Notes: generated by a model not told the origin, from the letters alone. A DNA stretch of 64,000 bases from Clostridia bacterium (GCA_900759015.1 CAAEUE010000001.1:45637-109636), one strand, 5' to 3'; counted from the first letter of the stretch, positions 46,566 to 52,387 are shown. Made by a program: numbers and translations.

Positions 46566-47312
46566 ATGAGCGCAGATATTAAAGAGATTGACTATGATCA
46601 AATAATTGTTAAAGCATCTCAAATAGCAAGTGCAGCTAATGATATGCAAACAGCTGTAAAAGCAGCTTTTACAAAAATCGATACAATGAGGGAAAATTGG
46701 TTTGGTAATTCATATGACAACTTTATTAATGTTGTAAATATGTCTATACCAGGATTAAACAAAATATTTGAAGTTACAGTTAGTGATATACCACACGAAA
46801 TTGCAGCAAAAGCAAAATCTTATGCAGCTTCAAACCAATCAAGTACTTCAAGTAGCTTAACAGAACAAATAGCTCTTATATTAAATGATGTTTCAAAAAC
46901 AAATAAAGGAGCTAAATTAAGATTTAGAACTGCAAATGTACAAGCAGATCAAAAATCTATAGAATCAAAATTTAAAGAAGCTAAACAAGCAGCTGAAAAA
47001 GCTTCATCAACAGCATCATCATTAGAAAGTGTTTGGAATTCTATTTCAGGAGATAGCAACATAAGAGAATTAAAAGCAGCATTCAAGAGATTAGATAATA
47101 TTTTAGACGCTTTAGGAAGTGCATTAGACAATCAAATAACAGCACAAACTAATACAATAGAATTATTAGAAGGTGCAGCAAATACAGTAGAAGCAGCTGG
47201 AGACGTAATGTCAGATGCAGTTGATGCAGCTAAAGATTTTGGAGCTCAAGCAATTAATAAAATACAAGAAACAGCTTCAGATGTTTGGACAAATCTTACA
47301 GGTAAAAACTAA
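46566..47312 (+). CDS. WXG100-like (EsxA/LXG-like N-terminal) putative T7SS substrate with A/S-rich helical C-terminus
   Basis: W-F-G motif (RENWFGNSYDNF) at residues about 43-46 between predicted helices. Strong RBS AAAGGAGGA and its own terminator at 47403..47460. Confidence 0.55.
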   Translation: MSADIKEIDYDQIIVKASQIASAANDMQTAVKAAFTKIDTMRENWFGNSYDNFINVVNMSIPGLNKIFEVTVSDIPHEIAAKAKSYAASNQSSTSSSLTEQIALILNDVSKTNKGAKLRFRTANVQADQKSIESKFKEAKQAAEKASSTASSLESVWNSISGDSNIRELKAAFKRLDNILDALGSALDNQITAQTNTIELLEGAANTVEAAGDVMSDAVDAAKDFGAQAINKIQETASDVWTNLTGKN

Positions 47313-47402
47313 AAATAGACTCTCTTATTTAAGTTAACAAAATGCAGGAGAGGTTAAGTTAAATTAGAAGTGTAATAAATATTATTGTACTTCGTCTTTT
47401 GC

Positions 47403-47460
47403 GAAAATAGTAATTCCTTATAATGACCAAGTTAGACGAATTACTATTTTCTTTTTTATT
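47403..47460 (+). terminator. Terminator after WXG-like gene
   Basis: Stem GAAAATAGTAATTC / GAATTACTATTTTC followed by a T-run. Confidence 0.5.
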
Positions 47461-47554
47461 TTATAAAAAAGTTATGTATAAAAATATATGAATTTGAATA
47501 ACTTTATTAATTTTATTAAAATTTTAACATCAGTAAAGTATAAGGAGAAAATAA

Positions 47555-50500: not shown

Positions 50501-51916
50501 AAGAATTCAACAGAGAGTAAAGGGGAACAACTAACAAATATAGTAAAATATATAAGTGATTTAGCTAAAAAAGAAAATATCTATGAAGCACCTTTATGGC
50601 TAAATCCTATTCCAGAAACAATATATTTAGATGCTATAAGAGATAAATATAAAGTTGAGGTAGAACCTGATGTAATTAATCCTGTAATTGGAGAATACGA
50701 TGATCCTTCAAGACAATTACAAAATGTTATGACATTGAACCTTTCTTTTGGAGGAAATACAATTATTTATGGAAATGCAGCAAGTGGTAAAGAAACATTA
50801 ATTAGTACACTAATTTATGATATTATTGCTAATTATTCTTCTGAAATAGCACAATTATATATTTTGGATTTCGGAAGTGAGACACTTAAAGCTTTTAGAA
50901 AATCAAAAAATGTTGGAGATGTTATGTTTGCAAATGATAATGAAAAAATAGCAAGATTTTTCATTATGCTACAAAACGAATTAAAAGAAAGAAAAGAAAA
51001 ATTATCAGATTATAATGGTGATTTTAAACTATATACTAAAGCTACAAATGAAATTATTCCAACATTTATAGTAATACTAAATAATTATGAGTCATTCGTA
51101 GAAAATTACCCAAATGGATATGATGAGATTTTAGAAATACTATTAAGAGAAGGCTTAAAGTATAGAATTGTTTTTGTTTTTACAGCAAGTACTACAACAG
51201 GAGTAAGATATAGAATGTTGCAAAATTTTAAACAAAAAATAGCATTACAAATGAATAAAGATGATGACTATATGAGTATTTTCGACAGACTTGGAAAGAA
51301 AAGACCTTCTAGATTGTTTGGTAGAGGCTTGGTAAATCCAGAAGATAAAAAATATTTTGAATTCCAAACTGCTAAAATTTGCGAAGCAGAAGCATGGAAT
51401 GAAACTGTTAGACAGACCATAGAAGAAAGAAATGCAGAAGAAACTATAGAAGCAAAAGAAATTGCAGTAGTACCAAAGTTTGTTACAATAAATCATTTAG
51501 AGTCTGCAATATCTGATCTGGAATCAGTTCCAGTAGGAATCTCTCATAAAACTATAAAACCTTATGGAATTGATTTAAAGAAAAATTTAGTGTATTCTAT
51601 AATTGCAAATAGTATAGAAGAATTTAGTTCGTTCTTTATTAATTTATTAGAGATAATAAAACTAATACCAAATATTGAATTTGTAGTTCTTGACGCAGAA
51701 AATATTTTACAAGGTAAGCAAGAAGCAATTAGAGATAAATATATAGAGGAGTTTAAAAAATTAAACAATGCAGATAAAATAAAGGATACTTTATTTATTA
51801 TAATTGGATTAGATAAATTTATAACTGAATTAGGTAGTGAGGATTTATTTTTTGAAAGTTTAAAAAATGCACAATCACTAAAAAATGTCATTATATTATT
51901 ATTGAATCAACAGTAA
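47555..51916 (+). CDS. essC: Type VII secretion system ATPase EssC/YukB (FtsK-SpoIIIE family)
   Basis: 1453 aa. N-terminal tandem FHA-like domains, two TM helices, then three P-loop ATPase domains (Walker A GSTGSGKSE at the first, GNAASGKET at the third). Confidence 0.9.
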   Translation: MLVTLIGKNSINKLILPREVTGNYWLYDKNYEQKRLINIESVDNNWQIKSTSRCRIINSKNIIMNDDSIRFARNGQEILDKIILKNYSFYYVTIGNSPEVYILYCSPVYVDNYTHLHIENTSTIFIGRDRKNNHISYDIPLVCKTQAKISLINGVWSIENYDIKFNTYVNDEPISMSTRMLANGDRISIFGLTIILIDKELFINNPFNKVNCNRNYFSVSKYSNKLIKNYDEDDFSNYIDDNYFLRTPRILDLLDETEIKISAPQISKKNRELPAALVLGSSLSMAMMTLITLVQTIDNLASGKVDLKSSMFSIVMSATMLLTSVLIPVLNRRYSVKIRELNEKDTIENYKKYIAKKIDTIDELLNRNRSVLYKTYVSAEECMDIILYDHSRLWERQISDKDFLTVRLGIGDVPSRLKISYTQDDNVEVTNETYDLMLECVEKAKVLKEAPVLLSLTNKNISAIIYQDEKLKYRYIQNLLLQLVTFHSYDELKLVFLLKDNLEKRWDFAKMLPHVWSNSKDMRYFADEHSKISIVSEYLSDELKKRTKQYENNFNYKENLPYYLIIIDDYKNVEDLEVINEILKKEKNMGFSILFLTDSILKLPNECQTFIEIEENKGVLRASQNFDESKLEFRVNTSAIFSFEQVSQILFNILIKYNEEKELLLPSSYTFLEMYNVGRIEQLNILDRWRESDSTTSLSAPIGIDGYGKHIALDIHEKFHGPHGLIAGSTGSGKSEFIITYILSLAINYHPDDVTFVLIDYKGGGLAGAFKRPDVQLPHLVGTITNIDKGSLQRSLESIQSELKRRQVEFSEARIITGESTVDIYKYQKYYHSGVLKKPISHLFIISDEFAELKQQEPEFMDELISVARIGRSLGVHLILATQKPGGVVNDQIRSNAKFGVCLKVQSPSDSKDIIDIPDAAKLSGAGQFYLKVGNDDYLALGQSAWAGALYYPSDEVKKEYDNSIEFISSTGRILKKVDDVKKNSTESKGEQLTNIVKYISDLAKKENIYEAPLWLNPIPETIYLDAIRDKYKVEVEPDVINPVIGEYDDPSRQLQNVMTLNLSFGGNTIIYGNAASGKETLISTLIYDIIANYSSEIAQLYILDFGSETLKAFRKSKNVGDVMFANDNEKIARFFIMLQNELKERKEKLSDYNGDFKLYTKATNEIIPTFIVILNNYESFVENYPNGYDEILEILLREGLKYRIVFVFTASTTTGVRYRMLQNFKQKIALQMNKDDDYMSIFDRLGKKRPSRLFGRGLVNPEDKKYFEFQTAKICEAEAWNETVRQTIEERNAEETIEAKEIAVVPKFVTINHLESAISDLESVPVGISHKTIKPYGIDLKKNLVYSIIANSIEEFSSFFINLLEIIKLIPNIEFVVLDAENILQGKQEAIRDKYIEEFKKLNNADKIKDTLFIIIGLDKFITELGSEDLFFESLKNAQSLKNVIILLLNQQ

Positions 51917-51957
51917 AAGTAAATAATTATACATATTCAGAGTGGTATAAAAAATAT

Positions 51958-52143
51958 GTGTCAGGAGATACAGGACTTTGGTTAGGAAATGGTGCTGGAG
52001 AACAATATTTATTAAAACCAGTTTCATCAACTTTTAAATTTATGAATACATGCGGTCAAAGCTATGGATATTCTTTTGTAAAAGGAAAACCGGTTTTAGT
52101 AAAATTATTAGGTATGAAGGAAAACGGTGAGGAGAATGAATAA
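51958..52143 (+). CDS. Small ORF (61 aa, GTG start, no RBS), doubtful
   Basis: Track ORF with no Shine-Dalgarno. It may be a frame-shifted EssC C-terminal remnant or non-coding. Confidence 0.2.
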   Translation: MSGDTGLWLGNGAGEQYLLKPVSSTFKFMNTCGQSYGYSFVKGKPVLVKLLGMKENGEENE

Positions 52144-52387
52144 AGTACTTGTTAAATTATATGTTCCAACAGTAGATAAGGAATATGATATATGGATACC
52201 ATTAAATAGAAGAATATATACAGTAATAAAATTAATTGTAAAAGCAATTAATGAATTTACAAATGGAGAATATAATCCATCAAAATTACCGGTGTTATAT
52301 GACAGAAAAACAGCAAAACCATATGATATAAATTTAACTATTGGAGAATCTACAATTAGAAATGGATCAGAGATTATATTAATATAA
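52127..52387 (+). CDS. esaB: EsaB/YukD-like ubiquitin-fold T7SS protein
   Basis: About 83 aa. The sequence pattern resembles YukD/EsaB (NGSEIILI C-terminus). Start is GTG 52127 or ATG 52136. Confidence 0.65.
   Translation: MRRMNKVLVKLYVPTVDKEYDIWIPLNRRIYTVIKLIVKAINEFTNGEYNPSKLPVLYDRKTAKPYDINLTIGESTIRNGSEIILI

Follow-up and report, generated by a model that had tools for sequence, protein, structure and literature searches.

Type VII secretion systems (T7SS) have been divided into the subtypes T7SSa to T7SSj, for which TsxA (a WXG100 protein), TsxB (a ubiquitin-like protein) and TsxC (an ATPase) make up the near-universal core, while every described subtype has components beyond these three, and some clostridia carry two subtypes in one genome (Garrett, Higginson & Palmer, 2024, PMC11217815). 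The ubiquitin-like YukD supports YukB/T7SSb assembly (PMC12637312). A separate body of work concerns the intervening elements that split sporulation genes, all the described ones lying in mother-cell genes (PMC4191935, PMC5595907). Here we analysed a 64,000-nucleotide stretch of a Clostridia bacterium (GCA_900759015.1 CAAEUE010000001.1:45637-109636; this whole stretch is called the window), in which an element of 7,825 bp (44688-52512) splits the spore-cortex gene pdaA. As an earlier note on the same DNA had claimed, the pdaA-interrupting element contains three T7SS-type genes. We propose, as a probable reading that still leaves considerable room for error, that these genes form a self-contained 'core-only' T7SS cassette, comprising a TsxA-like substrate, a TsxC ATPase and a TsxB-like factor, carried in the pdaA-interrupting element.

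This proposal is carried first by the recurrence of the three genes on their own. The data covered the window and loci of about 20 kb around family members (given L numbers below), and in these the trio was found in the same order (WXG-like gene of 204-249 aa, ATPase gene of ~1525-1534 aa, ubiquitin-like gene of 83-88 aa) in at least 10 genomic settings, counted as two forms of the pdaA element plus at least eight other sites. The settings include the window-type pdaA element (L001-L010, L021-L023, L027) and a larger pdaA element (L024, L025), and elsewhere a position beside a VirD4-type coupling protein and a helix-turn-helix (HTH) gene, upstream of sbcDC-prfA (L011, L012, L014-L016, L048, L049), one directly upstream of genes for TrbC-like pilins, PrgI, and TraC-like and VirB4-like proteins (L013), others after a short-chain dehydrogenase gene (adh_short; L017-L020, L026), after prfA (L028, L029), between acc/acpP and tilS (L030, L031) and before pta-ackA (L047), and an extended cluster that also contains DUF4176 and another WXG-like gene (L032, L033). 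When the window was compared with its relatives, at synonymous divergence (dS) up to 0.9, the ratio of nonsynonymous to synonymous rates (omega) was 0.3-0.4 for the 248-aa WXG-like protein, 0.12 for the ATPase and 0.05-0.07 for the 86-aa ubiquitin-like protein. No member of the EssB/YukC, EsaA (YueB) or EssA families was found in the 64-kb window, in agreement with the first reading, or within 5-10 kb of any related trio locus, and no kinase, PP2C or DUF6382 gene was called next to any trio or in the rest of the window. The unusual point is that no subtype-specific partner of any subtype lies nearby. The module had been called 'partial' and possibly a 'remnant'; however, the same trio stands alone in at least 10 settings and under purifying selection, and therefore constitutes a conserved cassette and not a remnant. 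A literature search found no paper on three-gene T7SS loci.

The trio-bearing organisms are uncultured human-gut Clostridium species, and in a scan of a genome collection the hosts of the trio family were uncultured Clostridium or Clostridia metagenome-assembled genomes (4/4 species representatives). By gene content the window itself, with a G+C content of ~26%, is Clostridium chromosome (groESL, mutL, ftsK, radA, an agr-like locus and pdaA-yqfC-yqfD-ybeY-dgkA-era-recO). In the extended cluster (L032, 8977-19951), more distant ATPase relatives (49% identity) stand in a longer array with two 204-aa WXG-like genes, a DUF4176 protein and proteins of 274, 89, 535 and 546 aa without assignment, which are possible effectors or accessory parts.

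The ATPase scores 939.5-940 bits on the model 'type VII secretion protein EssC' (TIGR03928; cut-off 778.4), the truncated and intact forms described below alike, and it contains a Pfam FHA domain (E 1.2e-6). The EssC identity and the two hydrophobic transmembrane (TM)-like helices (~273-295 and 309-331) thus stand, whereas other parts of the first description need correction. The FHA domains, taken as tandem, were detected as a single one (residues 125-189). Among the three FtsK-like P-loop domains that had been read from the sequence, D1 is canonical (Walker A GSTGSGKS, Walker B LFIISDE), D2 is degenerate (GNAASGKE) and no P-loop was found in D3, with two FtsK_SpoIIIE stretches detected and EccCa- and EccCb-type matches found as well. 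The length of 1453 aa is that of a truncated form: the window has an A6 tract at 51881-51886 where the conspecific contigs L002-L005 have A7 and an intact ATPase of 1529 aa, so the loss of one A removes the last 76 residues in this strain, and the 61-aa open reading frame (ORF) at 51958-52143 is the displaced C-terminus. This truncation is shared by the identical contigs L001 and L006 and by a cluster member that occurs on four contigs, and the A6 tract may represent either a real strain (phase) variant or an assembly error in the homopolymer. In this strain the cassette may accordingly be without activity or subject to phase variation.

The first protein of the trio is presumed to be the secreted substrate. 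Its family is narrow, with 36 clusters when grouped at 90% identity and, among 1.84 billion proteins, 197 representatives at 50%, and most members are 200-250 aa long. The WXG100-like N-terminal hairpin that had been suspected in this protein was recovered at the level of the family, as PF06013 matched 31/31 members at E <= 0.01 (best E 7e-8, residues ~8-86) with W45 and G47 invariant across the 31-member alignment, at the hairpin turn between helices 10-43 and 48-89, and the score of the window protein itself was 24.3, below the threshold of 27.3. A weak ESAT6_2 match was also seen (E 0.023). In the AlphaFold2 model (pLDDT 82.6; helices 10-43, 48-89, 122-160, 165-214 and 223-245), the protein is predicted to form two long hairpins of helices, followed by a tail helix of low confidence; the 'A/S-rich helical extension' of the first description is thus helical as stated, and its predicted form is a second long hairpin followed by the tail helix. 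A tandem-WXG100 fusion was considered and rejected, with an hhalign probability of 0.3% between the N and C halves, and the protein is therefore described as a WXG100 domain plus a second hairpin and not as a proven tandem fusion. A fold search of the model against the PDB was uninformative, yielding nothing beyond generic bundles of four helices (Dps, ferritin and designed proteins; E >= 0.1), and the family profile matched only designed coiled coils, and no Esx protein, among PDB sequences. The conserved C-terminal tail of the family, W241-x-N-L-T-G-K-N, is a candidate recognition signal for export.

The 86-aa protein had been read as an EsaB/YukD-like protein of ubiquitin fold, and the structural evidence upholds this. 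Its score on Pfam YukD is sub-threshold (15.9 bits; gathering score 27), 4/7 orthologues match at E < 0.2, and the AlphaFold2 model built with 35 homologues is a beta-grasp fold (pLDDT 95.4), for which Foldseek retrieved ubiquitin-like folds with probability 1.00, including the ubiquitin-like domains of mycobacterial EccD1 and EccD5 at TM-scores of 0.75-0.78. The protein ends in -IILI and has no C-terminal Gly-Gly, and its family comprises 107 clusters, all of 83-87 aa except for a few fragments or fusions.

The subtype to which the trio is closest was addressed by aligning the first 700 residues of the ATPase, in its intact form, to one representative per subtype, as read by optical character recognition (OCR) from Fig. 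S2 of PMC11217815. TseC of T7SSe was the best of the six over this region of the OCR sequences (229 bits, 28.5% identity, aligned from residue 1), followed by TsiC (142 bits), TsdC (118 bits), TsfC (113 bits), TsjC (107 bits) and, last, Staphylococcus aureus EssC of T7SSb (88 bits). The best solved relative of the ATPase is Bacillus subtilis YukB in the T7SSb core complex (9qks), which aligned only from residue 245, and therefore the FHA region, the dock of YukC/EssB in T7SSb, is without detectable similarity. When the FHA phosphothreonine motif (GR / SxxH / NG) was compared by eye with Fig. S2, GR alone was kept, which fits the absence of a kinase/phosphatase partner. The 'type VIIb' assignment of the earlier note is thus not upheld. 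Judged from these alignments, the module appears to be a bare universal T7SS core of a branch nearest T7SSe and far from T7SSb, for which missing EssB, EsaA and EssA would therefore be expected; it does not look like a decayed T7SSb, since its ATPase seems to belong to another branch and its FHA region to have diverged from the EssB-docking type.

The alternative that survives these comparisons best, and which follows the view of the earlier note, is that an incomplete T7SSb-type module borrows EssB/EsaA/EssA, or their analogues, from a complete T7SS elsewhere in the genome and serves as a spare ATPase-substrate pair, like the staphylococcal essC variant modules. Such borrowing would agree with the passing of the Firmicutes EssC model, with the need of known T7SSb systems for precisely the missing parts, with the co-occurrence of two subtypes in one genome in some clostridia (PMC11217815), and with data limited to the window and the trio loci out of each whole genome. 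Nevertheless, we consider it unlikely, because no partner lies within the distance searched in any of the settings, the FHA region that should dock YukC/EssB bears no similarity to that of YukB, the ATPase N-terminus is nearer to TseC than to EssC, the GR-only FHA motif, as judged by eye, fits the lack of a kinase/phosphatase partner, and the full core A, B and C, and not the ATPase alone, would be duplicated.

A further alternative arises from the settings, in other species, in which the trio adjoins genes of type IV secretion systems (T4SS), located at 5982-10803 in L013, 7420-9406 in L011 and 6495-9387 in L014. Two ORFs make up the coupling protein of L011, a split that suggests a decaying conjugative element. 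The trio could accordingly belong to the biology of conjugative elements (integrative and conjugative or integrative and mobilizable elements with a serine recombinase), acting with the T4SS in mating or establishment like mycobacterial ESX, and the pdaA element would then be a stripped-down integrative and conjugative element. The pilin, PrgI, TraC-like and VirB4-like genes directly after the trio in L013, the VirD4-type coupling protein and HTH regulator beside it in L011, L014-L016, L048 and L049, its linkage to a serine recombinase in the window and its frequent change of location are all in line with this, as is the structural homology of TraF, a protein of a Gram-positive T4SS, to EssB/YukC (PMC13037476). 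However, no T4SS gene lies within 10 kb in most settings (L017, L028, L030, L032, L047), the window element contains no relaxase or T4SS gene, and the split of the L011 coupling protein indicates that the trio outlasts conjugation genes; a conjugative role is therefore given only a small probability.

For the core-only cassette, the signals around the genes (Table 1) permit a stepwise model. A TTGAC(A) -35 hexamer is found upstream of the WXG-like gene in 9/10 aligned settings, L030 being the exception. The two hairpins predicted after the substrate gene are likely a partial terminator or attenuator, and a hairpin with a T run was seen by eye, in unfolded sequence, at the same place in L021, L025, L011, L014 and L017. 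We propose that the cassette would be transcribed in vegetative cells from its own promoter and that leaky termination after the substrate gene would provide the substrate in excess over the machinery, while the overlap of the 86-aa gene with the end of the ATPase gene suggests translational coupling. The ubiquitin-like protein would then bind the ATPase and aid its assembly, by analogy with YukD-YukB and with the ubiquitin-like domain of EccD and EccC, and the ATPase would move the substrate, a helical bundle, out of the cell through its single membrane. For its part, the element would provide stable vertical inheritance; most likely, excision during sporulation would rejoin pdaA and the germ line would keep the element together with its cassette.

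Table 1. Features of the pdaA region, in positions of the window
Feature	Position	Strand	Remarks
AgrB	41142-41747		agr-like locus
AgrD-like 39-aa ORF	~41798-41917		agr-like locus
Histidine kinase	42029-43399	-	agr-like locus
LytTR response regulator	43341-44096	-	agr-like locus; divergent from pdaA
pdaA 5' fragment	44266..44687	+	residues 1-141 and part of codon 142; ORF continues into the element to 44733; TIGR02884 positions 2-98
attL core GGAAATCATAC	44677..44687	+	1 of 2 copies in the window; junctions kept in L027, L021, L025, L024
Intervening element	44688..52512	+	7,825 bp including one core copy; ends from junction alignments; empty site in sister species
38-aa ORF, candidate recombination directionality factor	44762..44878	+	directly upstream of the recombinase
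Large serine recombinase	44897..46484	+	Resolvase, Recombinase and Zn_ribbon_recom domains; +1 shift at C45245 needed
Terminator-like hairpin over recombinase stop	46445..46506	+	inverted repeat I3; -19.8 kcal/mol predicted
Sigma-70-type promoter candidate, TTGACA-18-TATAGT	46504..46533	+	11/12 consensus positions; consensus match only
WXG100-domain protein (TsxA-like), presumed secreted substrate	46566..47312	+	248 aa; PF06013, AlphaFold2
Two hairpins after substrate gene, second followed by T run	47367..47451	+	-26 kcal/mol predicted
EssC-type ATPase (TsxC)	47555..52143	+	here split: 47555-51916 (1453 aa) and 51958-52143 (61 aa)
Ubiquitin-like protein (TsxB/YukD-like)	52127..52387	+	86 aa; start overlaps ATPase gene end; alternative ATG at 52136
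Terminator-like hairpin and T run, operon end before attR	52401..52450	+	inverted repeat I15, 21-nt arms, 90% complementary; -18.2 kcal/mol predicted
attR core GGAAATCATAC	52502..52512	+	second of two core copies
pdaA 3' fragment	52513..52900	+	TIGR02884 positions 98-223; then yqfC (52903, 2 nt gap), then yqfD

The boundaries of the element are defined by pdaA itself. In-silico removal of the 7,825 bp gave a 269-aa PdaA with one end-to-end match of 314.5 bits on TIGR02884 spore_pdaA (cut-off 298), and the 64 kb contain just two copies of the 11-bp core GGAAATCATAC, one at 44677 and one at 52502, where chance would give 0.02. The element-side arms at attL and attR form a 17-nt imperfect inverted repeat (15/17) around AATCATAC, as would be expected for a serine-recombinase attP; the predicted attB junction is GGAAATCATACAGTGAATCAT and the predicted attP junction TTAGGAAATCATACTCCTAAC. 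A 'prophage remnant' was considered and rejected as a reading of the element, which is taken as non-phage because a PHROG scan found no phage structural or lysis family in it and the matches of note were limited to integrase families for the recombinase.

L027 (~96% nucleotide identity of the flanks), L021/L022 (~90%) and L025/L024 (~85%) share the insertion point and the att arms of the window, with the att core identical in the window, L027, L021 and L025; the element occupies the same site in three or four lineages. At three depths of divergence, dS was 0.20, 0.48 and 0.65 for six flanking genes, 0.25, 0.71 and 0.75 for EssC, and 0.3, 0.8 and 1.0 for the recombinase. As dS of the element is at least that of the flanks at all three depths, there is no sign of recent transfer, and the element appears to have been inherited with the chromosome through several speciations. 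Between insertion-bearing lineages, omega is 0.03-0.11 for the 5' fragment of pdaA and 0.0-0.07 for the 3' fragment, and such low values in both halves over a long span are hard to explain unless pdaA is rejoined and used. In addition, 13 metagenome contigs of a sister species, in the same agr-pdaA-yqfCD context, have an uninterrupted pdaA with exactly the predicted junction; these are ~10% divergent and branch inside a clade whose outgroup L025 has the element, which agrees with the element having been lost precisely in a single germ line. Developmental excision was an assumption of the earlier note; the conserved pdaA halves and this empty site together make reversible excision, restoring pdaA, likely. 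A search of viral contigs for the excised circle (attP junction) gave no match.

The larger element form (L025, 4800-9900) has five extra genes, encoding a DUF4406/nucleoside deoxyribosyltransferase-like protein, two membrane proteins (the first with a weak DUF2238 match, the second with no family match) and proteins of 811 and 167 aa with no family match, and it carries the recombinase and the small ORF at its right end instead of the left. A homologous small ORF precedes the recombinase in L021 and L025 (39 aa, L025 16014-16133), and in L025 it stays before the recombinase though the latter lies at the other end of the element; the 38-aa ORF of the window, which had no PHROG family match, is for this reason of position a candidate recombination directionality factor.

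The recombinase gene of the window is broken into ORFs of 133 and 398 aa, in which all large-serine-recombinase domains are present and are joined only after a +1 shift at 45245. The extra C at this position (A AUU C GGA; ...GCG AUU C GGA GAC...) is common to the window, L027 and L021 and is missing from L024 and L025, the recombinase of L025 being an intact protein of 539 aa, and therefore IAI and GDNVDT can be read as one only if the +1 shift takes place precisely between them. At dS up to 0.85, omega is ~0.08-0.14 in the upstream as in the downstream part, without stops or indels, in an AT-rich genome. No credible internal start was seen by eye ahead of the downstream part. In a sample of 9,755 codons from 18 genes of the window, the zero-frame codon at the shift site, CGG, is not used once, and the site AUU-CGG suggests, by resemblance, the 'hungry-codon' +1 sites. 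A programmed +1 frameshift is the simplest reading of this gene and remains a candidate. Special conservation of the site, as for a stimulatory element, was considered and rejected, as the 27-nt invariant run there only shares third place in length within the gene, where runs of 47 and 32 nt are longer. A literature search found no report of frameshifted serine integrases. In L028, a second serine recombinase ~6 kb downstream of another copy of the trio (16651-18199) was called as separate ORFs of 218 aa (Resolvase) and 261 aa (Recombinase/Zn ribbon).

That the recombinase is instead a pseudogene and pdaA permanently inactive, another deacetylase having taken over (pdaA paralogues are common in clostridia) and the T7SS genes lying in a never-excised fossil island, would accommodate an ORF broken at 45245 in every copy of this lineage and the lack of an excised circle in viral contigs, but is very improbable given that both recombinase parts have kept omega ~0.1 over dS 0.7-0.85 with no stops or indels, that both pdaA halves have kept omega 0.02-0.11 over the same span, that a precise empty site exists in a sister species branching inside the clade, and that the shift site places a codon used 0/9,755 times where 'hungry-codon' +1 sites have theirs.

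Directly upstream of pdaA lies an agr-like quorum-sensing locus (41142-44096). The ~170-nt region between its LytTR gene and pdaA (44097-44265) is nearly invariant across all lineages, including one ~15% divergent elsewhere, which suggests dense regulatory signals, and no convincing σE, σG or σK promoter match was seen by eye upstream of pdaA.

Several points weigh against the core-only cassette and its excision. Secretion in B. subtilis needs YukC and YueB besides YukB, YukD and YukE, and therefore a three-gene system would be unprecedented. Secretion, the identity of the substrate and excision are all inferred from sequence, and the genomes might encode T7SS accessory components outside the window and the trio loci. 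In Pfam, the window proteins score below the gathering thresholds of WXG100 and YukD, the EssC of the window is itself truncated, and the subtype comparison consists of one OCR-derived representative each over the N-terminal ~640 residues, at 28.5% identity to TseC. The compartment of excision adds a further difficulty. PdaA is forespore-expressed in B. subtilis. Likewise, C. difficile pdaA (CD1430) is σG-dependent and forespore-made, whereas yqfC-yqfD is σE-controlled (PMC3789822). If excision took place in the forespore, the germ line would be left without the element, which would be incompatible with its observed long-term retention. Here pdaA ends 2 nt before yqfC, and its expression in the mother cell is plausible at this locus.

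Going beyond the cassette itself, we put forward, only tentatively and as an extension more doubtful than not, that the three-gene core is sufficient for export and moves as a cassette, that in one clade it has been captured by a domesticated serine-recombinase element controlling the integrity of pdaA, and that the recombinase of this element is made through a programmed +1 shift at CGG, tying excision to the translational state of the cell. If the trio works alone, it would be a minimal type VII machine, free of lineage-specific membrane partners, and would offer a simple test bed for the roles of the ATPase, the ubiquitin-like protein and the WXG substrate, a question that is open for T7SSa-j. 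The conserved +1 shift, if true, would join the few examples of programmed +1 recoding in bacteria, and excision might be controlled through it. For the sporulation intervening elements, a new host gene and a new type of cargo would be added to a short list. Since pdaA is a forespore gene in model species, the locus would represent either a rewired compartment of expression or an exception that challenges the mother-cell-only rule.

Compared with the known secretion systems, the trio appears nearest to T7SSe (TseA/A2, B, C, D, F, H, I, J, K). A ubiquitin-like TsxB and a WXG100 TsxA are common to the two. Their ATPases share an N-terminal FHA domain and a long loop separating two TM helices, and can be aligned from residue 1 onward through the opening sequence M-VTLI-K...LP..V.G.YW.YD. 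However, TseD (kinase), TseF (phosphatase), TseH, TseI, TseJ and TseK are not near the trio, T7SSe has two ~100-aa WXG100 proteins where the trio has one 248-aa two-hairpin substrate, and the FHA phosphothreonine motif of the trio is reduced to GR. With T7SSb (EsxA/YukE, EsaB/YukD, EssC/YukB, EssB/YukC, EsaA/YueB, EssA), the trio shares an ATPase that passes TIGR03928 and has YukB as its best solved relative over the TM-to-D2 region, a ubiquitin-like partner of small size and a WXG100 substrate provided with a separate promoter and terminator, both of them candidates in the trio, but it has no EssB, EsaA or EssA nearby, its FHA region is unrelated in sequence, its gene order is A-C-B and its substrate is 2.5x longer. 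The T7SSf and T7SSj of Clostridium belong to the same genus and have FHA ATPases and the core A, B and C (PMC11217815), whereas their ATPase scores are lower (113 and 107 bits) and TsfF, TsfJ, TsfV and TsjD, I, F, J and K are absent near the trio. The mycobacterial plasmid- or conjugation-linked ESX systems likewise place T7SS genes on mobile DNA, sometimes beside type IV-like genes (PMC4779608, PMC5381665), although they belong to another phylum and another subtype and are full ESX systems as compared with a three-gene core.

A literature search did not find pdaA as the host gene of an intervening element. Compared with skin (sigK), SPbeta (spsM), vfbin, vrin and gin (gerE), which split a sporulation gene within its coding sequence (PMC4191935, PMC5595907, PMC5025042), the pdaA element has the same arrangement of a large serine recombinase with a small upstream ORF, short identical end cores and a precise, frame-restoring excision as predicted here, and, like gin, it is not phage-like. 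It differs from them in that the known hosts are mother-cell genes whereas C. difficile and B. subtilis express pdaA in the forespore, in that its cargo is a secretion cassette, and in that its recombinase needs a +1 frameshift. The locus would represent a core-only T7SS cassette within a new type of intervening element.

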